A DNA stretch of 64,000 nucleotides, from assembly GCA_964639285.1 (NCBI GenBank), contig CAZXCI010000001.1, positions 42,343 to 106,342 of the forward strand, written 5' to 3'. The notes below the pieces were generated by a model. It was not told where the DNA came from. It worked only from the letters and a program-made list of their open reading frames with translations, and made no database searches. Position 1 is the first letter of the stretch. Every line of letters begins with the position of its first letter. The position numbers and the translations under genes were made by a program. Of the stretch, positions 27,549 to 43,655 are shown one piece after another. The stretch is from an uncultured Candidatus Saccharibacteria bacterium (GTDB lineage: Bacteria > Patescibacteriota > Minisyncoccia > Phycocordibacterales > XYD1-FULL-46-19).

Positions 27549-27718
27549 ATTCCTTGTTTTTGAGTCAGGGTCGGGGGCGCATTGCGCGCTTCCGGCCCTT
27601 TTTGGTTCTCAGCTATTTCTCTTGACAAAGCCTCTTTGCATATGCTAGTAATAGGCTATTAAAAGATCGATTTAAAAACATTATTAAGAGCTTTTCAAGC
27701 TATAATTATAAGAAAAAT

Positions 27719-28339
27719 ATGAACAAATTTGTAAAATTAATTGGTTCAATCGCCATTGCCTTCTTGGTGATTGTTGCTAGCGCCTCCTTGGTGTCAGCCG
27801 CGGGCCTGGTGACCACCATTAGTTCTCCTGTTGCCGGTGATACTTTCACCATTGGTCAGATTGTTAATTTGTCAGCCTCTAGCGTGAGCGCTGTTGGTGA
27901 AGTCAATTACGTTTGGTCCTTCAGCGATGGGACAGATAGCCGTACTGGTCAGACTCAGACTGTCAGCTTTGCCACCGCTGGTACTAAGACTATCACTGTC
28001 ATGGCTGGCGATGCTTCTGGCGCTAACAGCGTGAAGACTGTCGATGTTACTGTGACCGAGACTTCTTCTCAGAAGCCAGTTATCACTAATATTCGAGCAA
28101 TCAACATTACTCAGACCAGCGTGACCATTACTTGGGATACTGATATTCCAGCGACCAGCCGTGTTATCTATGACTCGACTAGCCATGCTGATATCTCTGG
28201 CGAAACAGCTCCTAACTTTGGTTATGTTGCTTCAACTCCAGAATCTGATGTTACCACTAAGGTCACTAGCCACTCAGTCGATATCTCTGGTCTCTCACCT
28301 GCGACCAAATATTATTTCCGTGTTCTTTCTCAAGGTTAA
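27719..28339 (+). CDS. Secreted PKD-domain plus fibronectin type III-like domain protein
   Basis: Signal peptide. PKD pattern VNYVWSFSDGTDSRTGQTQTVSFATAGTKTITV. FN3-like C-terminus ending SGLSPATKYYFRVLSQG. Confidence 0.6.
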   Translation: MNKFVKLIGSIAIAFLVIVASASLVSAAGLVTTISSPVAGDTFTIGQIVNLSASSVSAVGEVNYVWSFSDGTDSRTGQTQTVSFATAGTKTITVMAGDASGANSVKTVDVTVTETSSQKPVITNIRAINITQTSVTITWDTDIPATSRVIYDSTSHADISGETAPNFGYVASTPESDVTTKVTSHSVDISGLSPATKYYFRVLSQG

Positions 28340-28361
28340 TATCTCGGAAAGAGGAAGTAGA

Positions 28362-28397
28362 AAAATGTGCGACACCAAGTGCCGCACATTTTTTGTT
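28362..28397 (+). terminator. Rho-independent terminator
   Basis: aaaatgtgcg-acaccaagtgc-cgcacatttt stem then ttgtttg. Confidence 0.65.
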
Positions 28398-28513
28398 TGT
28401 ATAAAATAAAATAAAATAAAAAAGTAATCCACTGAAAATTAGAAATTAAACTAGAAGAAGAAGTATGTTTTATAGTATAATAAAAATTAGTAATTACTAA
28501 TCTAAAAATTTTT

Positions 28514-29458
28514 ATGAAAAAAAATATATTGTTCTTTATCGGATTGTTTGTCGCCATAATTTTAGTCGCTTTGGTTATGGCCTTTGTTCAAGTTGGTCTC
28601 CCTTCAAAGTATCAAACTCTTTCTAGGGTTGGTTTTGGTGGGAGTATAACTGAGAGTTTTGCTCCTAGTTCTAAAATGGCGGTTTCTGATCGGATGGCTG
28701 TTTCTCCTGCTTCAGCCTCAACTCCTAATATCTCTCGCAAAGTGACTAAGACAGGAAATCTTAGCATCCTTGTCGACACAGCCGAGACGGCTGTTCAGAA
28801 TATTCAGGCTATCGCTGAGAGTGTCGCTGGTTATGTTAGCGATTCAACCCTATATGAGGTTACTCCTGGTGTTAAGGCGGGGGCGATTACCATTCGTGTT
28901 CCGGCCGACAAATTTGATCAGACGATCAATCGTGTTAAAGACTTGGCCGTGAAGGTGGAGAGTGAGAATATCAATGCCAATGATGTCACCGAACAATTCA
29001 TCGACCTCGAAGCTCGTTTGAAGAATCTTGAAGCTCAGGAAGCTCAGTATCTTGATATTTTAAAAAAGGCCAGTGAGGTTGAAGATGTTTTGAAAATTAC
29101 TAATCAGTTAAACCAAGTTCGCCAACAAATTGACTCTTGGCAAGGGCAACTTAAATATCTTAATGACCAAATTGACCTCTCGACCATCACTGTCAATCTT
29201 ACCGCCGAAAAAGAAGTTCAAATTTGGGGATTAAATTGGCGCCCCATTACCGTCGTTAAGCAGGCGGTCCGTTCTCTTCTTAACGGTTTGGTTAGTTATG
29301 TCAATATAATTATTGCGGTGGCGATTTATCTACCAGTAATTCTTGTTTGGGTGATCACCTTCTTGGTTGTTGCCTGGATTTTCTGGACGGTTGTTAAGTG
29401 GCTTAAGAATCGAACTAAGCCTACAATTAAGAAGAAAGCCAAGAAAACAAGCGTTTAG
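28514..29458 (+). CDS. DUF4349-like membrane protein (signal anchor, coiled coil, C-terminal TM pair)
   Basis: N-terminal TM. Central coiled-coil ELEARLKNLEAQEAQYLDILKKA...QLNQVRQQIDSWQGQLKYLNDQIDL. Two C-terminal TM helices and a basic tail. This is the typical DUF4349 architecture. Confidence 0.5.
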   Translation: MKKNILFFIGLFVAIILVALVMAFVQVGLPSKYQTLSRVGFGGSITESFAPSSKMAVSDRMAVSPASASTPNISRKVTKTGNLSILVDTAETAVQNIQAIAESVAGYVSDSTLYEVTPGVKAGAITIRVPADKFDQTINRVKDLAVKVESENINANDVTEQFIDLEARLKNLEAQEAQYLDILKKASEVEDVLKITNQLNQVRQQIDSWQGQLKYLNDQIDLSTITVNLTAEKEVQIWGLNWRPITVVKQAVRSLLNGLVSYVNIIIAVAIYLPVILVWVITFLVVAWIFWTVVKWLKNRTKPTIKKKAKKTSV

Positions 29459-29502
29459 GGTAGCACTTTCTTTGGGCTCTTTCTCGTGTATAATGTAGTT
29501 CT

Positions 29503-30945
29503 ATGTCATATAAGCCAACGATTGGCCTGGAGATTCATGTGGAGTTGAAGACAGCGACGAAAATGTTTTGTCGTTGCCTTAATGACCAAGAAGGCCTGCT
29601 TGCCGGTAGGCAGGAAAAACCCAATACTAATATCTGCCCGGTTTGTACCGCTCAGCCGGGAGCTTTGCCGGTTATCAACAAGGAAGCGGTGAGGCATGTC
29701 TTGCGCGTTGGCGTGGCCCTCGACGGTCAGCTTGCTGACTTCACCGAGTTTGACCGCAAGAATTATTTTTACCCCGATATTCCTAAGGGTTATCAGATTA
29801 GCCAATATAAGTATCCTCTCGTCTCTGGCGGTGAATTAGGTGGAGTGAAGATAACGAGGATTCATCTCGAAGAAGATACGGCCAAATCAACTCACAGTGG
29901 GGGAGTCGACGAGAGTTATGTTGACTTCAATCGCTCTAGTCTTCCCCTGATGGAACTGGTTACTGAACCGGTTATTCATGACGGGAAAACGGCTTCTCGT
30001 TTTGCTAAGGAATTACAGACTCTCATGCGTTATCTCGGTGCCTCGGAAGCCAATATGGAGAAGGGGCAGATGCGTTTGGAGGCGAATATTTCTGTCTCCG
30101 AGACGGATCAGCTGGGGACCAAAGTTGAGGTGAAGAATCTTAACTCTTTTCGTTCTGTCGAACGAGCTATTGATTTCGAAATTGAACGCCAGATTAAAGA
30201 ATTAGAAAAAGGTGGTAAGATCGTACAGGAAACTCGCGGTTGGGATGAGAACAAACAAATTACCTTCAGCCAGCGCCTGAAGGAGTCTTCTCATGATTAT
30301 CGTTATTTCCCTGATCCTGATTTGCCCAAACTTTTCTTGAGTGAGATTCCTGAGTTTAGTTTAGAAGCGATCAAGAAGTCTTTGCCGGAGTTGCCTTGGC
30401 AGAAGCGCCAACACTTTACCGAAACTTTTGGTCTTAAGGGTGAAGATGTGGAAGTCTTCGTGCAGAATCATAAATTGGCCGAATTTTTCACCGAAGTAGC
30501 TGAGGGCTTTGATCTTAGTTTAGAAACAGCCAAGGCCTATCTTCAGACGGCGGCAAATTATATTACCTCCGATCTCTTAGGTTTGGTAGCTGATACAGAG
30601 GATTACACTTTGCCAGATACTAAGCATTATGCGGATTTGATTAAGATGGTTAGCGAGAAAGAAGTTTCTTCGCGTGGGGCCAAAGATATTCTAGCGGTAA
30701 TGATTAAAGAAGGAGGGGATCCGCGGGAAATTGCTGAAGCCAGAGGTCTCTTCCAAGTTCATGATGAGAGTGCCATCCTGGCGATTGTTGATAAAGTCAT
30801 TGCCGACAATCAGGATGTCTTCGCCGAATTCAAGGGGGGCAAGGAGAAATCACTCCAATTCCTCATTGGTCAAGCGATGAAGGAGAGCCGTGGCTCCGCC
30901 AATCCCGAAATTCTCAAAAAATTGTTTGAAGCGAAAGTAAATTAA
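29503..30945 (+). CDS. gatB: Aspartyl/glutamyl-tRNA(Asn/Gln) amidotransferase subunit B
   Basis: IGLEIHVELKT.TKMFCRC...CPVCTAQPGALPV and the C-terminal YqeY-like domain. Confidence 0.9.
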   Translation: MSYKPTIGLEIHVELKTATKMFCRCLNDQEGLLAGRQEKPNTNICPVCTAQPGALPVINKEAVRHVLRVGVALDGQLADFTEFDRKNYFYPDIPKGYQISQYKYPLVSGGELGGVKITRIHLEEDTAKSTHSGGVDESYVDFNRSSLPLMELVTEPVIHDGKTASRFAKELQTLMRYLGASEANMEKGQMRLEANISVSETDQLGTKVEVKNLNSFRSVERAIDFEIERQIKELEKGGKIVQETRGWDENKQITFSQRLKESSHDYRYFPDPDLPKLFLSEIPEFSLEAIKKSLPELPWQKRQHFTETFGLKGEDVEVFVQNHKLAEFFTEVAEGFDLSLETAKAYLQTAANYITSDLLGLVADTEDYTLPDTKHYADLIKMVSEKEVSSRGAKDILAVMIKEGGDPREIAEARGLFQVHDESAILAIVDKVIADNQDVFAEFKGGKEKSLQFLIGQAMKESRGSANPEILKKLFEAKVN

Positions 30946-30964
30946 ACGTGTTAATATATTAATA

Positions 30965-33430
30965 ATGGAAAACTCGCGAGAGGATAAATCTGCGGAAAAT
31001 AAAGAAGGCCTCAATTTCTATGAGGTAGCTCAAAGACGAAGAGATCTAAGACAGGAATTAAAGAGAGTTAGGCCCGAACTCGATAACCAGGATCCGCTCC
31101 TTGATCGGGCTTATAAGGAACCACTGGCTGAGGTTGAGGAACAAGCCTCTCGTTTCAAAATCGCTGATTTCAAAAAGCCAGAAAATTCCTCTGGTTTGAG
31201 AGGGGCCATAGATTTTCTTAAAGGACAAAAAGCTTCTTACGAAAAGTCTTTGGAATCAGAAACTTCTCCGGCTATTGCCCCAGAATTAGCCGAGGTTCTC
31301 AGGATGAAAGAGATTGTCAAAAGATATAAAGAATTTCGTCTTCGTCGAATGCTGGAAATTCTTGATCGAAGCATCTCGCCCACCACCAGAAAAAGGAATG
31401 AGTCAATTTTGCGTCTAATCACAGAGGAAATCAAAAATAGTGAAGAAGCCCTACAAAAAATGGATCTTCCTCTCCTTCGCCAAGCGGAGCTTCTGGGCTA
31501 TAAAGAAGACTTGGCGCGCAGTGGTCATATTTGTATTACTCCCAGTGTGGCCAAAGATTTGGAGGCGATCGGGGATCGAATGCTTACGGGCAAACCGATT
31601 CTCCTTCATGGACCAACGGGGACGGGTAAAACTTCCTTGGCTCGTTTTGCCACAGCTCATTTTATGGGGAAGGATCCGGAGATGGTCTTTTGTAATCCGC
31701 AAACGAAACAATCAGATGTCTACGGTAAAACCGGACTTCGCGCTGTTCCTGGTGGGGAGGGAGCGATTGAAACAGTCGAGATATATGGTCCGCTAGCTCG
31801 AGCGATGATTGAAGGAAAGCCTGTTATCTTCGACGAGTTCACCGCTTTGCCAAAAGAGCAAATGGTCTTCATCAAGGGAATTTTTAATGCCAAAATCGGG
31901 GACAAAATAAATATTAGTGGGAATGGGGTTGTTGAAATCAAGCCTGGTTTCCAAATGATTTTCACGGCGAATTTGAAATCAGAGAAAAATCCAGAGAGAC
32001 AGGATCTTCCGCCAGAAATTGCTCGCGAGTTTGAACAAAATAATCTAGAAATTAAATACAATGACCCGGCCGAGACTTATGACATCATCCTCTCACGTCT
32101 CTTGGGAAAAGATGATTCCTTAGAACTCTCTTTCTTTGATTTGAATACTACTTTGCCTAAATTATGTGAGGCTATGTCTGAAATCCAAGAGTCTTACACC
32201 AACGAAACAGATAAAGAAGTAGCTCGTCGAGCGGGAGCAATGGATGCTTCTGGTAAGGTTTATTCTTTGAAAAAATTTGTGATGACTCAGGGCTCGATTG
32301 AGGCCATCTTATCTTCGTGGTTGGTTGAGAAGCAAACGGGTAAAAAGGAGAGAAGTTTTTCGGAATTCTTAGATGAACGTCTGAAGACGGCTTTAACTTT
32401 CAAAGAGTACCCTAAAGAGGATAGAATTTTGGCGGCTAAAATCTTAGCCTCTAAGGGTTTCTTATTGACACTCACGGCCAAAGATCTTGATTTGCCGGAG
32501 GATATATTTAGTTTTAATACCATCAGGCAAATGCGCGGAGAAGATGCGACTGAAGAATTAAAAAATAAATCAGGAGACGTTAAACGGCTTAATTTGCGCG
32601 AAGTGGCCGAATTGGATCCCTTCAACAAGAGAGCTAACATGCTAAGACAACAGGCGGAAGATCTCCTCGGCCTCGGTGATCGAGAAGGGGATCCTTTTTT
32701 GAGTGATTTTGACAGAGCGTTTGGGGGAGTTTTTGCTGGAGAGAAAAAGGGTATTATTTCCACCCCCTTCACCTACACCAACCCCGACACTAACCAGGTG
32801 GAACTCCAAGAAACCATCACTCTTGATCTCGAAGCTAAACTCCAATCAACTCTCGCTTTCTACCAATCCATCAACCTTGATATTCCCCCTGACTTTGAAG
32901 ACCAAATCCGTGACATCTGGTCTCGTCATCAAGACGAGATTGAACAAGCCATTGCTACCCAAGGCTTCAATGACCTTCTCCTCCTTCCCCCCACCCCTAA
33001 TCTCCCAGACTTAGCAAACAAAACCGAGATGGAACAAGGCTACTGGACTTCCGACAACTTCACCGAAGGTGGCGGTTTCGCCCAAGCCAAGAGCCAAAAC
33101 ACTAACCAAACCCGTCTTCTCTTAGTCCACCACACCCAAAATCTCCAAGACCACCCTCTCCTCAAGCAAACTCTCAATATCAAGGGCCAAGACGTTAACT
33201 TAAGTGAAGCCCTCACCTTAGAAGACTACCTTCTCTTCCAGAGACAATATTTTGCTCAAAACAACAAACACTTAGATGAAGACGGCTGGACCTGGCTAGC
33301 CACTCATTCCGGCCCTCGCCTGGTCTGCGCCCGCTGGTTTCCTGGCGATCACCGGCTCCGCGTCGATGCGGGTGACCTCACCAGCCAGGATGGCTATCTC
33401 GGTGTCCGCCCCACCCGCTGTTTCTTGTGA
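30965..33430 (+). CDS. DGR target protein 1: AAA+ (MoxR/CobS-like, AAA_5) ATPase fused to C-terminal C-type-lectin-fold variable domain
   Basis: Walker A ILLHGPTGTGKTSLARFA, Walker B PVIFDEFTAL. The C-terminal 225 aa are identical to the tail of ORF 37193-38155 and end in VR1 (GPRLVCARWFPGDHRLRVDAGDLTSQDGYLGVRPTRCF). Confidence 0.75.
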   Translation: MENSREDKSAENKEGLNFYEVAQRRRDLRQELKRVRPELDNQDPLLDRAYKEPLAEVEEQASRFKIADFKKPENSSGLRGAIDFLKGQKASYEKSLESETSPAIAPELAEVLRMKEIVKRYKEFRLRRMLEILDRSISPTTRKRNESILRLITEEIKNSEEALQKMDLPLLRQAELLGYKEDLARSGHICITPSVAKDLEAIGDRMLTGKPILLHGPTGTGKTSLARFATAHFMGKDPEMVFCNPQTKQSDVYGKTGLRAVPGGEGAIETVEIYGPLARAMIEGKPVIFDEFTALPKEQMVFIKGIFNAKIGDKINISGNGVVEIKPGFQMIFTANLKSEKNPERQDLPPEIAREFEQNNLEIKYNDPAETYDIILSRLLGKDDSLELSFFDLNTTLPKLCEAMSEIQESYTNETDKEVARRAGAMDASGKVYSLKKFVMTQGSIEAILSSWLVEKQTGKKERSFSEFLDERLKTALTFKEYPKEDRILAAKILASKGFLLTLTAKDLDLPEDIFSFNTIRQMRGEDATEELKNKSGDVKRLNLREVAELDPFNKRANMLRQQAEDLLGLGDREGDPFLSDFDRAFGGVFAGEKKGIISTPFTYTNPDTNQVELQETITLDLEAKLQSTLAFYQSINLDIPPDFEDQIRDIWSRHQDEIEQAIATQGFNDLLLLPPTPNLPDLANKTEMEQGYWTSDNFTEGGGFAQAKSQNTNQTRLLLVHHTQNLQDHPLLKQTLNIKGQDVNLSEALTLEDYLLFQRQYFAQNNKHLDEDGWTWLATHSGPRLVCARWFPGDHRLRVDAGDLTSQDGYLGVRPTRCFL

Positions 33431-33478
33431 GGTTAGGTTGTATTTTTGATTTTGGTTATTGTTTGAGATTTTTGGTTT
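32765..33478 (+). repeat. 714-bp direct repeat copy A (C-terminal variable domain + VR + 3' flank)
   Basis: Identical to 37490-38203 where compared: the protein tail is identical over 225 aa, alternative-frame translations are identical, and the VR and 55 bp downstream are identical. Confidence 0.85.
33311..33423 (+). other. DGR variable repeat VR1
   Basis: 113-bp homology to TR (33702-33814). All 18 mismatches fall at positions where TR has adenine. GC-rich 3' end ggtgtccgccccacccgctgttt (IMH-like). Confidence 0.85.
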
Positions 33479-33701
33479 ATTTTTTAAAAATTCTTCGGTG
33501 AGTATGATTGATCTGACTTAGGGTCGGTCTGCCGAAGCGCTCAATAAAACTGAAGCTGGATTTGTTTTGAGAGCAAATTCATAAAGTCTTGATCTGTTAG
33601 AGTGGAAATAAAAGAAACAGCAGTTTTGCCTTGGGGAAGTGCCCTGATAAACGAAGTATTGTTTCCAAGAGAGCGGGGATAAAGCAAAACTAATGTGGGA
33701 C

Positions 33702-33814
33702 GGCCCTCGCCTGGTCAACGCCAACTGGAATCCTGACAATCACCAGCTCAACGTCAATGCGAATGACCTCACCAACCAGAATAGCAATCTCGGTGTCCGC
33801 CCCACCCGCTGTTT
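33702..33814 (+). other. DGR template repeat (TR)
   Basis: Encodes an AAY-rich template (GPRLVNANWNPDNHQLNVNANDLTNQNSNLGVRPTRCF). The listed ORF 33693-33998 is this template, not a gene. Confidence 0.85.
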
Positions 33815-34189
33815 TTATGCCAAGTTTCGAGAATATTTTATCCAACCTTGGGTCATCCGACCTATTTCTTGGAGTTTACTCTCAATCTCTAAATATTGCT
33901 TAGTGTCTATGATTTGGCAATTTAGAGAAAGGCGAAAAAGGATTTTGAGCAGTTCCACTTTAGTATTGGCTCGGAGGAGGACTTTTTCTTTTTCGTAGCG
34001 GGAGGATTGATTAGCTAGAGTAAAAATTTCCATTGATTCCAAAAGGGAATTTTCTAGTTTTTCTCCTAGGGTGTAACGCTCGTGTTTGGGAAATTTGAAG
34101 ATTAATTTGTGCGTAATCTCGTATAAGACGAGAAGTTTGATAACAATTGGTATCTCTAATTTTGAATAATCACAATGGCCGTTGTCCAT
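33815..34189 (-). CDS. avd: Avd-like accessory variability determinant (four-helix-bundle protein, TIGR02436-like)
   Basis: 124 aa. DYSKLEIPIVIKLL...FPKHERYTLGEKLENSLLE...ANTKVELLKILFRLSLNCQIIDTKQYLEIESKLQEIGRMTQGWIK matches the bAvd/IVS-protein pattern. On the opposite strand to RT, with a 15-bp overlap of their 5' ends. Confidence 0.65.
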   Translation of the reverse strand: MDNGHCDYSKLEIPIVIKLLVLYEITHKLIFKFPKHERYTLGEKLENSLLESMEIFTLANQSSRYEKEKVLLRANTKVELLKILFRLSLNCQIIDTKQYLEIESKLQEIGRMTQGWIKYSRNLA

Positions 34190-35155
34190 AAAAGTTATGA
34201 CGAATTATTTAGCCTTTATAATCTTTTTCGTGCCTGGAGGAAGTTTCGGCGGGGCAAGACCAGAAAAAAAGATATTCTGGATTACGAATTGCATTTGGAA
34301 GACAACCTCTTTAATTTATATGAAGCTTTATGCCAGGATATTTACGAACATTCAGCTTATCAATATTTTCAAATTTTTGACAATAAAAAGAGGGATATCT
34401 CTAAAGCGGAGGTGAGAGATAGAATTGTCCACCAAATTATTTATGATTATATACTTGGTATCTTTGAACCAGACTTTATATCCGATTCTTATGCTTCCAG
34501 ATTAAATAAAGGATCATACAAAGCTCTCGGGGCTTTTCAGTACTTTATCAAACTTAATCATTACTCTCAAAAAACTTGCTTTGTTCTGAAGTGCGATGTT
34601 AAAAAATATTTTGATAACATTAGTCACGAGATCCTTCTCCGTCTGATTAAAGAAAGAGTTGTTGATGATAAAGTATTTTTTATTATTCAAAAAATAATAA
34701 AAAGTTATTCTTCCGGTGATAATCGAGGTATTCCTCTTGGCAATATCACGAGCCAGATTTTTGCTAACATTTACCTCAATCAACTGGATCATTATGTTAA
34801 AAAAGAATTAGGTTGCCGTTTTTATGTTAGGTACAACGATGATTTTGTCATTCTTTCAGAATCTTCCCGTTGACTGGAAGAAATCCGAAGCAAAATAATT
34901 GCTTTTTCAGAAGAAGAGTTATCTCTAAATATTCCTCTTGGAAAAACAAGTTTGAGGAAAATAACTTGGGGCGTGGATTTTCTCGGATTTACTGTCCTGC
35001 CGGGGGCGATTCTCTTAAGAGACAAGACGAAAAGTAAGATGTTTGCCAATATTAGCTCACGTAATATCCATTCATATTTTGGCATTTTAAAGCACTGTAA
35101 TTCTTATAACCTGAGGCGGAAGATACTCTCAATGGATAAACTGGACAGAGTTTGA
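34175..35155 (+). CDS. DGR reverse transcriptase (single frame interrupted by one in-frame TGA at 34871-34873)
   Basis: N-terminal SYDELFSLYNLFRAWRKFRRGK. RT motif IPLGNITSQIFANIYLNQLDHYV. YVRYNDDFVIL (YxDD). After the TGA the same frame continues into the thumb region ...WGVDFLGFTV... ending at 35155. Total 326 codons. Confidence 0.85.
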
Positions 35156-35167
35156 TAAAATATTGGC

Positions 35168-37171
35168 ATGGAAGAGCCTAATGATATCGAGACAAAAAAT
35201 GGAGAGGATATATCCCCAGAGACAGAAAATGCCCACGCTGAGGCGGTGGCCTTGGTGGAGAAAAATCGCGACTTTTTTGAACATTACGCTAAGGGGAAGA
35301 TTCAAATTGAACCGGCACCGGCGGGGCTGGGGACTTTTGCCTTTGATCTAGAAAAAAATACGATTTATCTCAACTCGCTTTTTTTTCAAAAAATGGGGTT
35401 GCCCGAAGAGAAAACAATTTTTGCTACTCTCCACGAGATCGAGCACTTTATGGAAAAAATCCAAATTCTCTCGGAGGAAGGCGGGCAAAGAACTTTTACC
35501 AAATTTCTCTCCCGTCTTAAGGCCTCGCGTGCTTTCTCTTTGATAGATAATTGTGTGGCTGATATCAGGCAGAATCGAGCGGTTATCTCAAAAACCAATA
35601 GAGGGATGGCTGAGCTGGAGACGACGATGTACCAGGAAGATCTTTTTGCGGAAACCGATTTTCTTGCCCGACCTCGACATATTCAATTTAGTGAAGCGCT
35701 TTTGCGGGAATCGCGAGTGCCGAGTGAGAAGTGCCAAGTGGCGCCCGAAGTGAGACAGGCGCTGGAAGAAATAGCCAAAGTTTCCAATCTGTTGGAAGTG
35801 ATGACCAATCCGGAGACTCCGATGTCTTTACGCTTGAAATTGCAAGACAAATTTATCTGGCCCAAGGTGCAAGCTCTTTTGGATCAAGACATTGAAGAGA
35901 AGAAAAAACAAAAGGAAGAAGATAAAAAGAAAAAAGGAGGCGCCGATACTCTCGATGGAGCGGAAGGGGCGGAAGGCGGTGCGGGCGATGGGGGAGCCGG
36001 CGAAAATGATAATAAAGAAAGAGGGAAAAAAGGAGGAGATAACAAAGCTCAAACAGAAGACGGGGAAGAGAGTCAGGGAGGAGAAGGAGAGAGTAAGGCG
36101 GGTGGCGAAAATGATGAAGAAGAAACTGATCCCAACAAAATTTTTGCAAAGGATTATGAGGAGGCCGAGAGCAAATTCCCTGAGGCCGTTCCGTTAGAGA
36201 AAATTGAGGAGGCCTTCAAAAAATGGCAAGAGGCGCAAAAAAACCAAAATACCCCCGACCAGGCTGATGAAGCCTACGCCCAAAATCTTGGCGTGAAGAA
36301 GGAAGCCTTACAAAATTATCGTCGACTAGTTGAGTCCCTGGAGAAAATTGTGAATCCTGAAACTGATATGCCCGTGATTGAAGAATTGCGGAATCTTTTT
36401 AATCGGATAATCTCCAAGAGACTTAAATTGGCCCAAGCTCCTAAATACCCGGTATCGGAGGGGGACGAGTTAGTTGACCCGGCGCAATTGGTGGCCGACG
36501 TTAAAGCGGGGAATTTTGAGCCCAAGGTCTGGGAAGATGTAGAGATCAAGGAAAAGAAGGGTGACAAATTCGGCGAAGTGGAGATCACTCTTATCTGTGA
36601 CCGTTCTGGTTCGATGAATGGGGTTAAAGCGGAGGAACAAAGAAAGTCGGCAGTCTTAGTGATGGAGGCACTGAAAGAATTTGCCGAACTTTGCGAGCAG
36701 GAAAAAATAAATATTGATAAACCTTTGGAAGTTAGATCAGAGATTTACAGCTTTGCCAGTAGTGAGGATGACGACAAACCACTGAAGAAGATGTCCCCGG
36801 AGCTAGGCGAGGTCGAGCGGATAAATGTTTTAGAGAAGCTCAAAGAGATAACTGGTTCCACCACCGATTTTCGTTGTTTGGAAGCGATTGCCGCTAATCT
36901 CTCAGAAGAAATCAGGATCAAATTAAAAATTGCGGAATTGAAAAAGATCGTGATTGTCTTCACTGATGGCGAGAGCGACGATCCGGTTCGAACCCAAGTG
37001 AATCTTAAGAATTTACGCGACAACGGCGTTTTTGTTATCGGTGTGGGCATCACTTCCGCTGGTCAATCAGTTTTATCAACCTATGCGCCTGAAGCTCAAG
37101 TGGTGGAAGATGTCTCTCGTCTGCCCCTTGTTTTGGCCGAGCTTCTCAAGGAGCATTTACATAATCTCTAA
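35168..37171 (+). CDS. vWA-domain protein with N-terminal HExxH region and acidic low-complexity linker (CobT-like partner of the AAA ATPase)
   Basis: HEIEHF (HExxH). A long E/K/G/D-rich linker (KKKQKEEDKKKKGGADTLDGAEGAEGG...). MIDAS DxSxS in EITLICDRSGSMNG. Von Willebrand A fold at the C-terminus. Confidence 0.7.
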   Translation: MEEPNDIETKNGEDISPETENAHAEAVALVEKNRDFFEHYAKGKIQIEPAPAGLGTFAFDLEKNTIYLNSLFFQKMGLPEEKTIFATLHEIEHFMEKIQILSEEGGQRTFTKFLSRLKASRAFSLIDNCVADIRQNRAVISKTNRGMAELETTMYQEDLFAETDFLARPRHIQFSEALLRESRVPSEKCQVAPEVRQALEEIAKVSNLLEVMTNPETPMSLRLKLQDKFIWPKVQALLDQDIEEKKKQKEEDKKKKGGADTLDGAEGAEGGAGDGGAGENDNKERGKKGGDNKAQTEDGEESQGGEGESKAGGENDEEETDPNKIFAKDYEEAESKFPEAVPLEKIEEAFKKWQEAQKNQNTPDQADEAYAQNLGVKKEALQNYRRLVESLEKIVNPETDMPVIEELRNLFNRIISKRLKLAQAPKYPVSEGDELVDPAQLVADVKAGNFEPKVWEDVEIKEKKGDKFGEVEITLICDRSGSMNGVKAEEQRKSAVLVMEALKEFAELCEQEKINIDKPLEVRSEIYSFASSEDDDKPLKKMSPELGEVERINVLEKLKEITGSTTDFRCLEAIAANLSEEIRIKLKIAELKKIVIVFTDGESDDPVRTQVNLKNLRDNGVFVIGVGITSAGQSVLSTYAPEAQVVEDVSRLPLVLAELLKEHLHNL

Positions 37172-37192
37172 TCTCGTAATATAATACCCCAT

Positions 37193-38155
37193 ATGTCCCC
37201 CGAATCCCTCTCTCCCCACCCCGACCAAACCCAAGAGGAACTCCGTCCTCTCTATCAACAAAGACTCAATTCTCTCAAAGATCCTCTCCATCAAGGCCGT
37301 GATCAATATGCCCAAGACCTAAAGAACGGTCTCTTTGATGATCAAGAGGGTGAAGAACCAGGCCAAGGAGAGAAACGCCAAGAGGAAGCTCAACAAAAGC
37401 TTCTTAAACTCCTCGCCCAAGCCCAGAAACTCAAAGCTCTCCTCGACAGCGGAGAACCTCTTCCTCAATTATCTCCCGTCATCACCACTCCCTTCACCTA
37501 CACCAACCCCGACACTAACCAGGTGGAACTCCAAGAAACCATCACTCTTGATCTCGAAGCTAAACTCCAATCAACTCTCGCTTTCTACCAATCCATCAAC
37601 CTTGATATTCCCCCTGACTTTGAAGACCAAATCCGTGACATCTGGTCTCGTCATCAAGACGAGATTGAACAAGCCATTGCTACCCAAGGCTTCAATGACC
37701 TTCTCCTCCTTCCCCCCACCCCTAATCTCCCAGACTTAGCAAACAAAACCGAGATGGAACAAGGCTACTGGACTTCCGACAACTTCACCGAAGGTGGCGG
37801 TTTCGCCCAAGCCAAGAGCCAAAACACTAACCAAACCCGTCTTCTCTTAGTCCACCACACCCAAAATCTCCAAGACCACCCTCTCCTCAAGCAAACTCTC
37901 AATATCAAGGGCCAAGACGTTAACTTAAGTGAAGCCCTCACCTTAGAAGACTACCTTCTCTTCCAGAGACAATATTTTGCTCAAAACAACAAACACTTAG
38001 ATGAAGACGGCTGGACCTGGCTAGCCACTCATTCCGGCCCTCGCCTGGTCTGCGCCCGCTGGTTTCCTGGCGATCACCGGCTCCGCGTCGATGCGGGTGA
38101 CCTCACCAGCCAGGATGGCTATCTCGGTGTCCGCCCCACCCGCTGTTTCTTGTGA
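37193..38155 (+). CDS. DGR target protein 2: standalone C-type-lectin-fold variable protein
   Basis: 320 aa. Unique roughly 95-aa N-terminus, then the same 225-aa domain as target 1 ending in an identical VR. TATAAT at 37180-37185 only 7 nt upstream of the ATG. Confidence 0.7.
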   Translation: MSPESLSPHPDQTQEELRPLYQQRLNSLKDPLHQGRDQYAQDLKNGLFDDQEGEEPGQGEKRQEEAQQKLLKLLAQAQKLKALLDSGEPLPQLSPVITTPFTYTNPDTNQVELQETITLDLEAKLQSTLAFYQSINLDIPPDFEDQIRDIWSRHQDEIEQAIATQGFNDLLLLPPTPNLPDLANKTEMEQGYWTSDNFTEGGGFAQAKSQNTNQTRLLLVHHTQNLQDHPLLKQTLNIKGQDVNLSEALTLEDYLLFQRQYFAQNNKHLDEDGWTWLATHSGPRLVCARWFPGDHRLRVDAGDLTSQDGYLGVRPTRCFL

Positions 38156-38203
38156 GGTTAGGTTGTATTTTTGATTTTGGTTATTGTTTGAGATTTTTGG
38201 TTT
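37490..38203 (+). repeat. 714-bp direct repeat copy B
   Basis: See copy A (32765-33478). Confidence 0.85.
38036..38148 (+). other. DGR variable repeat VR2 (identical to VR1)
   Basis: Same 113 bp as VR1. Matches TR except at TR adenines. Confidence 0.8.
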
Positions 38204-38270
38204 TGTCTTGGTTTTTGTTACAATGTCTCTATTAATATCTAATCAAACCTATTTTTATATAAATAAAATT

Positions 38271-39317
38271 ATGGATAATCAAATTTCTAACGGGGGAAAC
38301 AAAAAAGTACGAGTGGGAATTAACGGTCTGGGGCGAATTGGGCGCGCTTTTCTAAAATTAGCAATTAAGAATCCGAATATCCAAATTGTAGGAGCTAACG
38401 ATTTGGGCGATCTTGAGAATATTGCTTATCTTTTAAAATATGACAGTGCCTACGGCAAATTTGCTGGGACAATCGCTACTGGCGACGGAGTTCTAATTGT
38501 GGATAATCAAGAAATTAAATTTTTTCAAGAAAAAGATCCGGCGCAATTGCCCTGGGGTGATTTGCAGGTTGATGTTGTTGTGGAATCGACTGGCGTTTTT
38601 GAAACTTTTGCCAAAGCCAAAGCTCACTTGGATGCGGGCGCGCGCAAGGTCGTGATCTCGGCGCCGGTGAAGGATGAGCCGGTGGCCGGTATTCCGGGCG
38701 GAACACATTTAATTAATATCAATGACGAAAATCTGTCAGACAAAGTTATCACGTCTAATGGTTCTTGCACCACCAATTGCGCGGCGCCGGTGATAAAAAT
38801 TCTTGATGAGGCGATTGGCGTGGAGAAGGCCCTGCTCAACACAACGCACGGTTATACGGCAACGCAAAAATTAGTTGATGTGGCTGATGCCAAGGATTGG
38901 CGACGGGGGAGAGCGGGTGCGATTAACCTTATTCCTTCTTCGACTGGCGCGGCAATTGCCGTGGGACAAGTGATCCCTTCAATGCAGGGCAAATTTGATG
39001 GGATTGCGGTGCGAGTTCCAGTGATTACGGGGTCAATGATTGATATTACTTTTATCGCTAAGAAAAATACCAGTGTGGAAGAAGTTAACAGCGCCTTAGA
39101 AAAAGCGGCGAGTGATCCTAAATGGCAATCAACTTTTACTGCAACCAAAGAGGCTCTCGTTTCCTCGGACATTTTGGGTAGCCCCTTTGCCTCTATTGCT
39201 GATCTCTCTTATACCAAGGTGGTAGGGGGCAATCTTGTCAAAGTGATGGCTTGGTATGACAATGAAGCCGGTTATACCAACACCCTCGTCGAACACGTGA
39301 TTAAATTGGGGCAGTAG
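38271..39317 (+). CDS. gap: Glyceraldehyde-3-phosphate dehydrogenase, type I
   Basis: VRVGINGLGRIGR (NAD binding). Active site SNGSCTTNCAAPV. The ATG at 38271 is preferred over the upstream 38184 extension. Confidence 0.9.
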   Translation: MDNQISNGGNKKVRVGINGLGRIGRAFLKLAIKNPNIQIVGANDLGDLENIAYLLKYDSAYGKFAGTIATGDGVLIVDNQEIKFFQEKDPAQLPWGDLQVDVVVESTGVFETFAKAKAHLDAGARKVVISAPVKDEPVAGIPGGTHLININDENLSDKVITSNGSCTTNCAAPVIKILDEAIGVEKALLNTTHGYTATQKLVDVADAKDWRRGRAGAINLIPSSTGAAIAVGQVIPSMQGKFDGIAVRVPVITGSMIDITFIAKKNTSVEEVNSALEKAASDPKWQSTFTATKEALVSSDILGSPFASIADLSYTKVVGGNLVKVMAWYDNEAGYTNTLVEHVIKLGQ

Positions 39318-39331
39318 GTTATAATAGTTAG

Positions 39332-39793
39332 ATGAAGATTTACTTGGGCACCGACCATGCTGGTTTTGAATTAAAGGAGAAGATCAAGGTCTATCTCAAG
39401 GGTAAGGGTCTGACTGTTGAGGATCAGGGGGCTTACGCTATTGATCCTGAGGATGATTATCCTGATTATGTGAAGATCGTCGCGCGGATGGTACAGGGTG
39501 AACCTGATAGTCGGGGAATTATTTTGGGTGGTTCGGGACAAGGTGAGGCTATTTGTGCCAATCGTTTCTCGGGAATTCGTGCTGCTCTCTATTATGGTGG
39601 GTCGCTCGATATCATCAAGCTTTCTCGTGAGCATAACAATGCCAATATTCTGTCGCTTGGGGCTCGATTTATAAAATTCGAAGAGGCAAAGACGGCGATC
39701 GATTTGTGGCTAGCCACACCTTTCTCTGATAATGAACGCCATGCTCGCCGAATTTTTGAAATAGATGATGGTTCGATGGGGAAGGTTATATAA
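39332..39793 (+). CDS. rpiB: Ribose-5-phosphate isomerase B
   Basis: MKIYLGTDHAGFELKEKI...GILLGGSGQGEAICANR is the RpiB/LacAB family signature. Confidence 0.85.
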   Translation: MKIYLGTDHAGFELKEKIKVYLKGKGLTVEDQGAYAIDPEDDYPDYVKIVARMVQGEPDSRGIILGGSGQGEAICANRFSGIRAALYYGGSLDIIKLSREHNNANILSLGARFIKFEEAKTAIDLWLATPFSDNERHARRIFEIDDGSMGKVI

Positions 39794-39799
39794 AGGAAT

Positions 39800-40459
39800 A
39801 TGGAAATAATCCCTTCAATTATTGCCTCTGATGCCGAAGAAGCTCGTACTCGAATGGTGCGGGTCGAAGGTCTTGTCGATTGGGTTGAGTTTGATGTGGC
39901 CGACGGCGTCTTTGTTCCGAGTTTCACTTGGCCAATGCTTCTGGGGCAAGCACCAGAGGATCTCAAAGAGGTGGACGGCAAGACAAAGATTAGTGCCCAC
40001 TTGATGGTAGAGCATCCCGAGACTCTCATTGATGACCATCGCCCCGGCGGGGCGAGCTGGCAAGACGTAGCAGATAGAATAATTTTTCATTACGAGGCAA
40101 CTGATGAAATTGAGAAAATAATTAGAAATGTTGGCGTGCATATGAGTTTAGGAATTGCTTTAGAATTGCCTACTCCGGTGGAGAAAATTTATCCCTATTT
40201 AGATAAAATAAAATTAGTTCAATTGATGAGTATCGAACGAGTGGGTTATTCTGGCGAAAAATTTGACGAACGAGTTTTTGAAAAAATTAAAACTCTTAAA
40301 ACTAACTGGCCAGATGTTAAAATTATTGTCGATGGGGGGATTGATTTAGAAATTGGCAAAAGGCTCAAAGAAGCCGGTGTTGATGGTTTAGTTGTTGGGT
40401 CACGAATCTGGAATGCTCCCAATATTGAAGAAGCCATACGCGATTTTCAAAGTTTGTAG
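39800..40459 (+). CDS. rpe: Ribulose-phosphate 3-epimerase
   Basis: IIPSIIASDAEEARTRMVRVEGLVDWVEFDVADGVFVP and the C-terminal VDGGI. Confidence 0.85.
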   Translation: MEIIPSIIASDAEEARTRMVRVEGLVDWVEFDVADGVFVPSFTWPMLLGQAPEDLKEVDGKTKISAHLMVEHPETLIDDHRPGGASWQDVADRIIFHYEATDEIEKIIRNVGVHMSLGIALELPTPVEKIYPYLDKIKLVQLMSIERVGYSGEKFDERVFEKIKTLKTNWPDVKIIVDGGIDLEIGKRLKEAGVDGLVVGSRIWNAPNIEEAIRDFQSL

Positions 40460-40467
40460 CTAAATTT

Positions 40468-41298
40468 ATGATACTTATTGATGACAAATTAAAATTTTTA
40501 GAAGGCAAAGCGAAGAATATTCGTCGTTCAATTATTGAGATGCTAGTAGAGGCACGATCTGGGCATACAGCAGGAGCCTTAGGTATGGCCGATATTTTCA
40601 CCGCCCTTTATTTTGGTCTTTTGAATCATGATGTTAAGAAGCCGGACTGGCCAGAGAGAGACAGGTTAATTTTGTCGAATGGTCACATTTGTCCAGTTTT
40701 GTATGCGACCTTAGCTGAGGCGGGTTATATTGAGAGAAAAGAATTATTGACCTTGCGCAAATATGGCTCGCGCTTACAGGGTCATCCGCATCGCGAATTT
40801 TTGCCATTGATGGAGACAAGCTCGGGCCCTCTAGGTGAAGGTTTATCGCAGGCGGTGGGCATGGCTCTAGCGGATCGTCTTGATAGTGGCAAGAGTTCGC
40901 AAAAATTCTTTTATTGTTTGATGAGTGATGGCGAATTACAGGAGGGGAGTACTTGGGAGGCAGCAATGTTGGCGGGTAAAGAAAAGCCCCATAATCTTAT
41001 TGCTGTTATCGACCGCAATAATATCCAAATTGATGGTCATACCGAAGATGTGATGCCCTTAGAATCGCTCGCTGACAAATGGCGAGCCTTTGGTTGGCAG
41101 GTAATCGAGATTGACGGACACAGCTTCCAAGAAATTTTTGATGCCGTGGGCATGGCCAAATCTGTCTTCAATCGCCCGACGGTTATTATTGCCCACACTA
41201 CCCCTGGCAAAGGCGTCCTAGAATTTGAAAATAAATTTGAATGGCACGGCAAACCTCCGACTAAAGAGGAGGGGATCGAAGCCTTGAAAGAAATATGA
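40468..41298 (+). CDS. Transketolase, N-terminal (TPP-binding) subunit of split enzyme
   Basis: GHTAGALGMADIFTALYFGLL and the GDG-like SDGELQEGSTWEA TPP motif. Confidence 0.85.
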   Translation: MILIDDKLKFLEGKAKNIRRSIIEMLVEARSGHTAGALGMADIFTALYFGLLNHDVKKPDWPERDRLILSNGHICPVLYATLAEAGYIERKELLTLRKYGSRLQGHPHREFLPLMETSSGPLGEGLSQAVGMALADRLDSGKSSQKFFYCLMSDGELQEGSTWEAAMLAGKEKPHNLIAVIDRNNIQIDGHTEDVMPLESLADKWRAFGWQVIEIDGHSFQEIFDAVGMAKSVFNRPTVIIAHTTPGKGVLEFENKFEWHGKPPTKEEGIEALKEI

Positions 41299-42278
41299 GT
41301 AACCTTAACCCCAAAATTTACGAACTTAATGTTGAGCAGAAGGCGATTCGGAGTGGCTTCGGTGAGGGTCTGGTTGAGGCGGGGGAGAAAAATGAAAATG
41401 TCGTGGTTTTGTGCGCGGACTTGAAGGAGTCGACCCGTGTTGAAGAATTTTCCAAGAAATTCCCCGAGAGATTTATTGAGTTGGGTGTAGCCGAGCAGAA
41501 TATGGCTGGCGTGGCTTCGGGAATGGCCACTATGGGCAAAGTTCCTTTTATGGTCTCTTACGCTATCTTCTCGCCAGGGCGGAATTGGGAGCATGTCCGG
41601 ACAACGATTTGTTACAACAATACTAATGTCAAAATTGTTGGAGCTCATGCGGGGCTTAATGTTGGACCTGACGGCGGTTCGCATCAGATGCTTGAAGATA
41701 TTGCTCTCACCCGAGTTTTGCCTAATATGACCGTGGTCGTCCCTTGTGATGCTATTGAAGCGAAGAAAGCAACGCTGGCTCTGGCCGAATCTATTGGCCC
41801 GGCTTATCTGCGTTTGGCGAGAGAAAAGAGTCCTGTCGTGACAACCGAAGAATCAGACTTTGTTATTGGTAAGGCAAATACTTTGCTTGATCAAGAGAGC
41901 CCTGAAGCGACTCTTATTGCTTGTGGCCCGATGGTTTATCGGGCCCTTATCGCTGCTAAGAAATTGGATCGAGAGGGGATTAAGGTTAGTGTTATCAATA
42001 ATCATACGATTAAACCCTTGGATGAAGAAACCTTGCTTGAGGCCGTGCAAAAAGCGGGGGCTGTTGTTGCTTGCGAAGAGCATCAAATTGCCGGCGGGAT
42101 GGGGAGTGCGGTGGCTGAATTATTAGCCAAGACAAATCCTGTGCCCATGGAGTTTGTTGGTGTTGCTGATCGTTTCGGCCAATCTGGTGAACCCGCCGAG
42201 CTTATGGAGCATTATGGCCTTGGTGTTGATGATATTATCGATGCGGTAAAAAGAGTAATTAAGAGGAAAAAGTCTTAA
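41295..42278 (+). CDS. Transketolase, C-terminal (pyrimidine-binding) subunit
   Basis: Pyr domain plus the transketolase C-terminal domain. ATGA overlap with the upstream subunit. Confidence 0.85.
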   Translation: MSNLNPKIYELNVEQKAIRSGFGEGLVEAGEKNENVVVLCADLKESTRVEEFSKKFPERFIELGVAEQNMAGVASGMATMGKVPFMVSYAIFSPGRNWEHVRTTICYNNTNVKIVGAHAGLNVGPDGGSHQMLEDIALTRVLPNMTVVVPCDAIEAKKATLALAESIGPAYLRLAREKSPVVTTEESDFVIGKANTLLDQESPEATLIACGPMVYRALIAAKKLDREGIKVSVINNHTIKPLDEETLLEAVQKAGAVVACEEHQIAGGMGSAVAELLAKTNPVPMEFVGVADRFGQSGEPAELMEHYGLGVDDIIDAVKRVIKRKKS

Positions 42279-42281
42279 AGA

Positions 42282-42575
42282 ATGGTTCAAAAATTACAAA
42301 AGACTCCTGTTCTAGACAAAATAGCTTTTGCCCTTATGCGATTTTCTCGCTGGTTATTTTTTAGGACTATTCCGATGATCGTTTCTGCTTTTACCATTAT
42401 CTATCTCCCCAGGGAAAAGGTTAACGATCTTGCGGGTGGCGATCCTCTTATCGCTAAGGTTATTTTATTATTTGAATTTATTTTGGTCTTTCTTCTCGTT
42501 TCTGGCCTCATTTCGTTTTTTGACAAAAAATATTTCAAAGAAGCTTTCGATGCTTGGCCACAGAGAAAAAGGTAA
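42282..42575 (+). CDS. Small membrane protein, hypothetical
   Basis: 97 aa with two predicted TM helices. Confidence 0.35.
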   Translation: MVQKLQKTPVLDKIAFALMRFSRWLFFRTIPMIVSAFTIIYLPREKVNDLAGGDPLIAKVILLFEFILVFLLVSGLISFFDKKYFKEAFDAWPQRKR

Positions 42576-42577
42576 AA

Positions 42578-43639: not shown

Positions 43640-43655
43640 ATGCTATGATTATAAT

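Follow-up and report, generated by a model that had tools for sequence, protein, structure and literature searches.

How have two genes diversified by the same retroelement come to end in exactly the same sequence, hypervariable segment included? The question arises in a stretch of 64,000 nucleotides from an uncultured Candidatus Saccharibacteria bacterium, hereafter the window. Positions 32765-33478 (copy 1) and 37490-38203 (copy 2), both on the + strand, form a direct repeat whose two cassettes lie 4,725 nt apart. A preliminary description of this DNA had called the two segments indistinguishable and, in direct comparison, they are, with 0 mismatches over 714 nt. Neither end of the block can be extended by even 1 base, and immediately past the borders the flanks match at 9-17 positions per 50 nt (ungapped), i.e. 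at random. The comparison of the window with itself by blastn, proposed in that description, recovers the pair as 719 nt with 1 mismatch. Each copy contains 221 codons, a TGA stop codon, and 48 nt beyond it. The identity of the translations thus stands, though not the length of 225 residues given earlier; the identity had also been said to include the variable repeat (VR) and 55 bp of 3′ flank, and the block does end 55 nt past the VR.

The locus is a chromosomal diversity-generating retroelement (DGR), made up of a template repeat (TR), an avd gene, and a reverse transcriptase (RT) gene, within a conserved operon of Patescibacteria. An RT of the DGR clade is found beside the repeats, the differences between TR and VR are confined to adenines, the VRs are 3′-terminal, and Avd is present. 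The TR (33701..33814, + strand), rich in A and C with 28 A, abuts the stop codon of avd, carried by the opposite strand. This single TR serves both VRs. VR1 (33310..33423, +) has 18 mismatches to the TR, all at TR adenines, and VR2 (38035..38148, +), equal to VR1 in the deposited assembly, has the same 18; TR and VR thus differ at 18/28 TR adenines and at 0 non-A positions. Each VR lies at the 3′ end of its target ORF and stops 7 nt before the stop codon. Its final 28 nt (CTCGGTGTCCGCCCCACCCGCTGTTT..), GC-rich and IMH-like, are the same in TR and VR, which diverge beyond. The avd gene (33815..34189, -; 124 aa) reaches 61.1 bits with Pfam bAvd (cut-off 40) and, just under the cut-off of 80, 75 bits with NCBIfam DivGenRetAVD. 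The starts of avd and RT overlap by 15 nt, and avd has the same orientation in relatives (L003, L008, L009, L012, L013). The RT gene (34175..35155, +; 326 codons; Pfam RVT_1, E 1.4e-16) shares 64-66% identity with RTs from syntenic DGR loci and 86-88% with its closest intact counterparts; it carries one in-frame TGA, at 34871-34873.

Directly after the target stop codon stands a conserved motif, TAGGTTGTA (33434..33442 in copy 1 and 38159..38167 in copy 2, both +), whose family consensus is GGTAGCTTGTAGCTTGA. It occurs at most 40 nt past the stop in 21 of 34 modules, whereas 265 kb, read on both strands, contain 15 further occurrences, and we take it as a putative cis element of the target site. 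Hairpins or cruciforms downstream of the VR are not universal among DGRs. In the region past the VR (33395-33500), no stable structure like that of Bordetella phage BPP-1 is predicted (z-score 0.18), and the direct-repeat-like motif GGTAGCTTGTAGCTTGA stands where the BPP-1 hairpin would be. An Rfam scan of the whole window gave a tRNA (50618-50690) as its sole match.

The first target gene (30965..33430, +; 821 aa) encodes an AAA+ ATPase of the MoxR/NorQ class fused to a C-terminal variable module. The ATPase has a Walker A motif GPTGTGKT at aa 216, matches Pfam AAA_5 over aa 212-343 (E 5e-11), and has NorQ as its nearest solved chain (E 5.5e-7). Downstream of the RT gene, a VWA-domain protein (35168..37171, +; 667 aa) shows HEIEH at aa 89, an acidic Gly-rich linker, and a C-terminal VWA domain (Pfam VWA, E 5e-11). 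The second target gene (37193..38155, +; 320 aa) encodes an N-terminal helical hairpin (aa 14-86) followed by the variable module; its AlphaFold2 model has a pLDDT of 91. Its full-length homologues number more than 100, at 40-59% identity, and it is the canonical stand-alone form of the module family. The variable domain of about 220 aa may have a C-type-lectin (CLec) or FGE-like fold. This operon of MoxR/NorQ-class AAA+ ATPase, VWA protein, and small coiled-coil protein is conserved and widespread in Patescibacteria, and the two DGR-diversified proteins are probably partners of one complex. PADLOC returned only generic RT models and a marginal mad8 match on the ATPase, with no defence-system assignment.

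Are there really two copies? Logan provides k=31 assemblies of public reads, made independently for each run. Its contigs agree fully (100%) with the window, and at 4/4 borders they break off after exactly 30 nt (k-1) of repeat sequence. They span 26406-32794 (L030), 33449-37519 (L023), and 38174-49793 (L027), so that they end at 32794 and begin again at 33449 in copy 1, and end at 37519 and begin at 38174 in copy 2. At the repeat, they have a common suffix of exactly 30 nt and a common prefix of exactly 30 nt. The junctions A->R, R->U, U->R, and R->D, where R is the repeat and A, U, and D are the flanking segments, are therefore all present in reads, and the two-copy structure is real. This answers in favor of two copies the check for an assembly duplication suggested in the preliminary description. 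The further caveat given there, that the assembly may be a population consensus, is valid: the k=31 graphs cover the repeat borders, and the interior and the per-copy identity of the VRs are read from the deposited assembly alone. Two very similar but non-identical copies, differing especially in their VRs, might have been threaded by the assembler along the same majority path, and we regard this as a minor but real possibility. Indeed, the graphs prove only that at least 30 nt are shared per border, and exact-product look-ups (both target proteins, P0001, and the bare 221-aa module) gave no match, with neither a Logan gene product for the module interior nor an independent contig through the inside of the repeat. 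Moreover, a contig break in the runs of a sister haplotype, 30 nt before a TR-adenine site within the VR, points to VR-level branching in the population. Against such a consensus, both borders are sharp and fall at the limits of paralogy, the deposited 376-kb contig is contiguous through both copies, this sister haplotype independently gives an inferred shared block of 572 nt, and a module pair in one relative (L012), identical outside the VR, shows that near-perfect homogenisation is real in this module family.

Could the retroelement itself have made the copies identical? The block far exceeds the 114-nt TR/VR, so retrohoming cannot explain it, as already argued in the preliminary description. 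A variant of this idea has a long cDNA, copied from the mRNA of target 2, entering target 1 at its VR/IMH and replacing the whole module. The 3′ end of the block does lie just past the VR/IMH and the conserved flank motif, where homing would start, and an RT is encoded 700 nt away. However, this class of RT mutates A, whereas adenine-specific differences between the copies number 0/714. The block also reaches 55 nt 3′ of the VR, past the start of TR-templated cDNA, and the RT gene holds a stop codon. Finally, priming in the Bordetella phage DGR requires a TR-adjacent RNA spacer, which the target mRNAs do not have. RT-mediated copying is thus scarcely credible.

The age of the two module-bearing genes is given by their relatives. 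The 821-aa protein has more than 100 related clusters of about 800-830 aa, which align with 98-100% of its length at 41-64% identity, and distant Patescibacteria show the same gene order: AAA+ ATPase::module, TR, avd(-), RT, VWA, small protein::module. Synteny with both modules is found in L003, L008, and L009 with a DGR, and in L016 and L018 without a DGR nearby. In distant relatives, the two modules are 73-74% identical over 660-725 nt, including 55-70 nt after the stop codon, and a protein-level module border, x-Y-T-Y-T-N-P after I-[ST]-[TA], is common to all relatives. Since these modules align over the same block with the same border, the identical block of the window is the full paralogous block. 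Both genes have carried the variable domain since long before this genome, so that one copy would recently have overwritten the other via ordinary recombination. The preliminary description had offered duplication, gene conversion, or domain capture; with a fusion this old, gene conversion is the option that survives, and recent duplication or capture falls. A module newly copied onto an ATPase gene formerly devoid of one would fit the abrupt loss of similarity at both borders and a composition like that of the 320-aa gene and unlike that of the ATPase gene. Yet the ATPase::module fusion, with matching length and junction motif, occurs in over 100 clusters and throughout the syntenic relatives examined, and the sister haplotype has it as well. 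The ATPase gene therefore had its module before the event, and such a de novo capture is very unlikely.

Base composition bears on the origin of the module in another way. A lateral origin together with the DGR had been proposed in contrast to AT-rich host genes, but this is not supported. The module (GC 0.52) lies above the window average of 0.42 and the avd and RT genes (0.34-0.37) lie below it, and the neighboring host genes, at 0.43-0.46, are not AT-rich. The GC skew, on the other hand, is -0.41 in the module, a strong excess of C over G, -0.36 in the N-terminal region peculiar to target 2, and +0.13 in the ATPase part. This skew, common to the module and the target 2 N-terminus and absent from the ATPase, argues for the 320-aa gene as donor and not for co-transfer with the DGR.

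Concerted evolution by ectopic gene conversion is known, for example, for bacterial tuf or rRNA gene copies. As in these cases, paralogues of the module within one genome can be closer than positional orthologues, and tract ends are sharp where homology stops. ATPase-context modules were monophyletic in 0/200 bootstraps, i.e. gene context does not decide how modules group. The NJ tree joins the ATPase-context and stand-alone modules of L018 (99/200 bootstraps); they are 74-80% identical to each other in amino acids, and the ATPase module is 50-58% identical to the ATPase modules of other genomes. Module pairs within a genome reach 82.8% (L001), 88.8% (L018), 95.2% (L013), and 98.2% (L012). Over about 1,055 nt outside the VR, the L012 pair has 0 differences; the 12 within the VR all fall at TR adenines. 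Such is the look of a converted or duplicated pair after renewed DGR action. In all multi-module genomes other than that of the window, the VRs differ between copies, each with A-specific mismatches to one TR. Module pairs thus undergo concerted evolution, of which the window is the most recent case. Unlike in tuf or rRNA genes, the homogenised unit is a domain cassette that two genes share while being unrelated elsewhere, and a programmed hypervariable segment forms part of it.

We therefore consider it probable that ectopic gene conversion, a non-reciprocal homologous recombination, made two old paralogous domain cassettes identical, probably from the 320-aa gene to the ATPase gene. The ATPase gene and the small-protein gene each end in an old variable domain of about 220 aa under one TR, and one cassette would have been overwritten by the other. 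The converted tract would be the whole stretch of homology between the two genes, beginning with the first strand of the domain and ending 48 nt beyond the stop codon at the conserved GT-rich motif, in which case the VR and the homing signals would have been copied too. As to direction, the sister haplotype (contigs L020, L021, L029) and the composition point to the 320-aa gene as the most likely donor and to the ATPase gene, with copy 1, as acceptor. Just outside copy 1 (33479-33814), this haplotype is 94-100% identical to the window; inside copy 1, identity falls to 71% in the 48-nt 3′ flank and to 82.5% in the VR, and a small indel sits exactly on the repeat border. Its A-contig and U-contig have a common 30-nt suffix starting 5 nt upstream of the window border, and its U-contig starts 30 nt before position 33332. 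The sister repeat thus appears to span 572 nt, the first part only, vs. 714 nt in the window. The ATPase VR of the sister carries 3 non-adenine mismatches. The two haplotypes are mosaics, with 86-91% blocks among 99-100% blocks; the sister's copy-1 segment could itself be an import, and the argument on direction assumes that its 3′ end is ancestral.

Two aspects of the tract are awkward for gene conversion. Flanking homology is normally needed, yet identity reaches the ends of detectable homology, so that very short homology or an illegitimate join would have had to settle the tract ends; upstream of the border, only 7/12 nt match, and downstream the block finishes within a T-rich run. In addition, the module identity of about 73% seen in relatives makes a poor RecA substrate, which implies that the window lineage was already more homogeneous before the event, as the sister haplotype suggests.

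Why have the VRs not diverged again? Either the event would be very recent, or the RT would be crippled or throttled by a TGG to TGA change, or the assembly would be blind to per-copy differences. The TGA follows YNDD, is itself followed by C, and is present in four separate Logan run assemblies and in both haplotypes; in the closest intact relatives (L025, L026), the codon is TGG (Trp). UGA recoding (genetic code 4 or 25) was rejected because, among the 52 window reading frames that reach 200 codons, 12 close with TGA and could be extended in frame only briefly, and because relatives have a sense codon at this RT position; TGA is otherwise a normal stop in this genome. A long-dead pseudogene is not supported either, the frame remaining open for 93 codons past the TGA, with conserved C-terminal motifs. 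The dN/dS is 0.11 after the stop, close to 0.09 before it and to 0.09 in the VWA gene, and judging from this constraint the RT may still be functional via UGA read-through, which weakens a dead RT as the account of the identical VRs. Mosaic recombination could imitate such a low post-stop dN/dS. The TGA may nevertheless explain the undiversified VRs, a link that we infer. The VR differs between the window and sister haplotypes, and one Logan contig breaks at a TR-adenine site; both may hint, indirectly, that mutagenic homing is still going on.

A bolder reading, which we hold to be unlikely, is that conversion between the targets of one DGR is a regular second layer, re-synchronising targets with the TR and sharing specificity, with the RT TGA as a throttle. 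Conversion would then reset the VR, IMH, and 3′ motif of all targets to a single TR and rescue decayed targets, such as the sister's ATPase VR with its non-adenine mismatches. A successful binding specificity would be copied from the small protein to the ATPase, both partners seeing the same ligand. The TGG to TGA change would be a leaky throttle locking in a chosen variant: a UGA followed by C, read through by tRNA-Trp, would restore the original residue.

DGR loci with several targets, whose C-terminal CLec domains have been duplicated and recombined, are described from Thiohalocapsa PB-PSB1, cyanobacteria, Treponema, and Legionella (Roux et al., 2021, PMC8144416; Doré et al., 2024, PMC10907252). 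There, high nucleotide identity between targets was read as intragenomic duplication or recombination, and chimeric targets were proposed to have arisen by intragenic recombination (PMC10907252; PMC8144416). As in these loci, one TR/RT serves several targets, and C-terminal VR domains sit on unrelated N-terminal parts. In contrast, transposons and MITE-like repeats are implicated there and the duplicates are described as diverged, whereas the window, without traces of mobile elements, has two old paralogues re-homogenised with their VRs themselves identical. MoxR-vWA ternary conflict systems have also been tied to DGRs (Kaur et al., 2020, PMC7159879; DGR 4/5/7/9 loci, PMC10907252). They resemble the window in placing a MoxR-class AAA+ ATPase and a vWA protein beside a DGR, with a diversified domain that is of FGE/CLec type there and may be so here. 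However, their variable domain is usually on the vWA protein, and not on the ATPase and a small coiled-coil protein; their third part is a VMAP protein with effector domains, and their hosts are mainly multicellular bacteria, whereas the host here is of Patescibacteria type. No VMAP or effector domain was found, the third protein having no Pfam, NCBIfam, or PADLOC match, and the first 210 residues of the ATPase hold no tryptophan, so that the WxhapG and PsWRxa motifs are absent. The locus is therefore not assigned to the MoxR-vWA-VMAP ternary conflict systems. The CPR DGR targets of VR class 'UVR4' (category g1) are described in excerpts of a survey as a P-loop NTPase, Midasin-like AAA, upstream of a VR without known fold (Wu et al., 2018, PMC5758913). 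Compared by this described architecture, they very probably belong to the same family as target 1; the excerpts give architecture only, and the paired small target, VWA partner, homogenisation, and RT stop do not figure in them. The locus represents an ordinary recombination process in a catalogued class of DGR targets, and no new kind of element.

The accepted view of how DGRs work is left unchanged by this locus. In DGR surveys, every VR counts as a separate witness to mutagenic homing. As this locus indicates, a VR can also be replaced outright, together with its homing signals, when co-targets recombine. Not every case of identical or near-identical VRs, nor every difference in VR from strain to strain, can therefore be taken as a sign of DGR activity or inactivity. 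Finally, as CPR DGR targets are mostly reported without recognisable domains, the operon of NorQ/MoxR ATPase, VWA protein, and small protein supplies a concrete context for them.

The DGR of the window has two targets, an 821-aa AAA+ ATPase (target 1, 30965-33430; Pfam AAA_5 at aa 212-343, Walker A motif GPTGTGKT), whose nearest solved relative is the MoxR-class ATPase NorQ, and a 320-aa protein (target 2, 37193-38155), whose gene is followed by that of GAPDH. Both end in a variable C-terminal domain of about 220 aa, hereafter the module. Between them lie the template repeat (TR, 33701-33814, + strand), the adjoining avd gene (33815-34189, minus strand), the gene of the reverse transcriptase (RT, 34175-35155) and, downstream of the latter, that of a VWA protein (35168-37171). 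The two variable repeats, VR1 (33310-33423) and VR2 (38035-38148), are identical in the assembly; either one has 18 mismatches to the TR, every one of them at a TR adenine (0 non-adenine). The TR abuts the stop codon of avd, encoded on the opposite strand, and the starts of avd and RT overlap by 15 nt in divergent orientation, a layout also seen in L003, L008, L009, L012 and L013. A transcript containing the TR and reaching the RT would need antisense passage through avd. To judge by its relatives, the genome that carries the locus is of Patescibacteria type.

The modules belong to an exact direct repeat. Positions 32765-33478 (copy 1) and 37490-38203 (copy 2), 4,725 nt apart, match at 714 of 714 positions; the match breaks at the very next base at both ends, and without gaps the flanking sequences resemble each other no more than random ones do (9-17 of every 50 nt matching). 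Each copy comprises 221 codons and their TGA stop, followed by 48 nt of flank on the 3' side; each VR ends 55 nt short of unique sequence. The borders were checked independently using Logan k=31 per-run assemblies of public reads. Contigs 100% identical to the window, L030 (26406-32794) and L023 (33449-37519) from SRR8925806 and L027 (38174-49793) from SRR8925774, end exactly k-1 = 30 nt within the repeat at all borders. L030 and L023 share a suffix, and L023 and L027 a prefix, of exactly 30 nt. This pattern is characteristic of an exact repeat with two contexts in and two contexts out. Run SRR8925805 likewise represents the haplotype of the window. The identity of the copies reported in the preliminary description is confirmed, with 0 mismatches, and the two-copy structure is found in the assemblies of individual runs, which prove all four junctions. 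The repeat interior lies outside the reach of these contigs; that the assembly is a consensus there, the two VRs being perhaps non-identical copy by copy, seems rather unlikely to us.

The association of the module with the ATPase is old. The 821-aa protein belongs to a family of more than 100 clusters with 98-100% coverage and 41-64% identity, and more than 100 full-length homologues of the 320-aa protein show 40-59% identity. The gene order ATPase::module, TR, avd (minus strand), RT, VWA, small::module is also found in the relatives' loci L003, L008 and L009; in L016 and L018, no DGR cassette lies between the ATPase, VWA and small-protein genes. In the syntenic relatives, the module pairs are 73-74% identical at the nucleotide level over 660-725 nt, including 55-70 nt past the stop codon, and the protein-level similarity border is constant (..I-[ST]-[TA] / x-Y-T-Y-T-N-P..). 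Since this paralogous block has the same extent and the same border as the repeat, the 714-nt block of the window is the whole ancient paralogous block, made identical. A recent capture of the module by the ATPase gene is thus highly improbable, the fusion being widespread and syntenic in relatives. Among the origins offered by the preliminary description, recent duplication and domain capture are unlikely, and gene conversion is favoured. We consider it quite probable that ectopic gene conversion took place within a module family evolving in concert; copying mediated by the RT is barely conceivable as the source of such a block.

The number of targets varies within the conserved locus, as illustrated by L009. 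There the ATPase::module gene is separated from the TR by an additional, third target (5466-6149), which has a VR of its own and an upstream region similar to the N-terminus of the small protein. In L018 (JBFOMN010000966.1, 1-8743), the VWA gene is surrounded by five paralogous modules, of which the ATPase carries one and four stand alone, with an AbiEii/DUF6922 toxin-antitoxin pair among them; no RT was seen within the 11.7 kb covered.

Concerted evolution is visible across the family. In a neighbor-joining tree of the modules (200 bootstraps, VR removed), ATPase-context modules are monophyletic in 0 of 200 bootstraps, and modules tend instead toward grouping by lineage. The ATPase module of L018 clusters with the four stand-alone modules of the same locus in 99 of 200 bootstraps, with 74-80% amino acid identity to these vs. 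50-58% to the ATPase modules of other genomes. Nucleotide identities within the module pairs of L001 (82.8%), L018 (88.8%), L013 (95.2%) and L012 (98.2%) fill the range from 73% to 100%. The L012 pair shows 0 differences over about 1,055 nt outside the VR and 12 differences within it, all at TR adenines; to judge from its sequence, the pair was homogenised first and then diversified anew by the DGR. These 12 differences occur despite an RT (11415-12418) that a short tandem duplication splits into two frames (segment SSRDGKGTHKAV repeated), which may be a sequencing artefact of the long-read assembly or reflect another disabled RT. VRs differ between copies in every other multi-module genome examined, and the window is the sole case of identical VRs.

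Timing and direction of the conversion can be approached through a second, co-sampled version of the same locus (sister haplotype), represented by Logan contigs L020, L021, L022 and L029 from SRR8925803, SRR8925766 and SRR8925719, with an identical TR. Compared with the window, it is a mosaic of 86-91% and 99-100% identical blocks, a pattern indicative of frequent homologous recombination between strains. For example, L020, aligned with 33302-37514, is 99-100% identical at 33530-33814 and 35700-37400, and 86-91% identical at 34190-34499 and 34874-35699. Just outside copy 1 (33479-33814) the haplotypes are 94-100% identical, and the repeat border itself is marked by a small indel. In the ATPase copy of the sister, identity to the window is only 71% in the 48-nt flank and 82.5% in the VR; the VR1 of the sister differs from the TR at 13 adenine sites and at 3 non-adenine positions in the GC-rich 3' part. 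L029 (upstream) and L020 (inter-repeat) have a common 30-nt suffix starting 5 nt upstream of the window border, and L020 and L021 both start 30 nt before 33332, a TR-adenine site. In the simplest reading, the two copies of the sister would be identical over 32760-33331 (572 nt) and different beyond; in the window, identity runs on through the VR and the flank. Because copy 1 of the window equals its own copy 2 but not copy 1 of the sister, the ATPase gene was most likely the acceptor, overwritten by the small gene as donor. Base composition points the same way: the module and the unique N-terminal part of target 2 have similar GC skews (-0.41 and -0.36, respectively), against +0.13 for the ATPase part.

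By the standards of this genome, the gene of the 320-aa protein has an unusual composition throughout, the 297 nt of its unique N-terminal part included (GC 0.50; GC skew about -0.36 to -0.41 vs. +0.12 to +0.19 for its neighbours), and Gln and Pro largely replace the Lys of the family consensus. In L026, an 80% identical relative, the small gene is C-rich too. C-richness looks like a lineage trait rather than the mark of a recent import. The suggestion that the module arrived laterally together with the DGR finds no support.

The RT frame contains a single in-frame TGA (34871-34873), located after YNDD and followed by C. Beyond it, 93 codons remain open and carry conserved C-terminal motifs; elsewhere in the genome, TGA is an ordinary stop. 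The sister haplotype carries the same TGA, and Logan assemblies of four separate runs contain the 232-aa truncated product or the exact sequence coding for it. TGG (Trp) occupies this codon in L025 (locus-wide nucleotide identity 89.8%) and L026 (80%), the nearest relatives with an intact RT, so the change was TGG to TGA. Comparison of the two haplotypes gives a dN/dS of 0.09 for the RT part preceding the stop, 0.11 for the part following it and 0.09 for VWA. The TGA may be a recent nonsense mutation, with divergence imported by recombination from lineages having an intact RT. It may also be a leaky stop, acting as a throttle on the RT. Of the bacterial stop signals, UGA with a following C is the weakest; it is misread by tRNA-Trp, which would restore the original residue. 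In either case, RT supply is probably reduced, which fits VRs that have not re-diverged, without proving the link.

Directly 3' of the target stop codons, a non-coding motif is conserved across the family (consensus GGTAGCTTGTAGCTTGA, a 7-nt direct repeat found after module stops in L002-L018; TAGGTTGTA in the window, at 33434-33442 and 38159-38167). It lies at most 40 nt from the stop in 21 of 34 modules, vs. 15 occurrences elsewhere (265 kb, both strands), some of which sit after partial modules at contig ends. It is common to genomes whose proteins are only 45-60% identical. No hairpin is predicted at the motif. We infer that the motif serves the homing site as a putative downstream recognition element. 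This would explain its retention in both paralogues, and the motif may stand in for the BPP-1-type hairpin in target recognition.

DGR-linked MoxR-vWA systems are known, the variable domain usually being on the vWA protein and VMAP forming a third component (PMC7159879, PMC10907252). It has repeatedly been proposed that C-terminal domains carrying a VR are duplicated and recombined onto different N-termini (PMC10907252 among sources), and PMC5758913 lists CPR targets that have a Midasin-like AAA part under class UVR4 / g1. The locus described here adds one more member to these known kinds; in the available parts of this literature, comparably clean evidence for old co-targets re-homogenised including the VR was not found.

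The N-terminal region of the VWA protein, devoid of Pfam match, carries an HEIEH (HExxH) motif at aa 89 (35432-35446) and possibly forms a metallopeptidase-like domain; a long acidic, Gly-/Lys-rich low-complexity linker (about 35870-36170) precedes the VWA domain. Finally, a 468-aa ORF (26142-27548) contains internal direct repeats (26561-26795 vs. 27173-27428, about 70-85% identical) encoding Glu/Gly-rich segments, where the Logan annotation gives a weak PASTA match.
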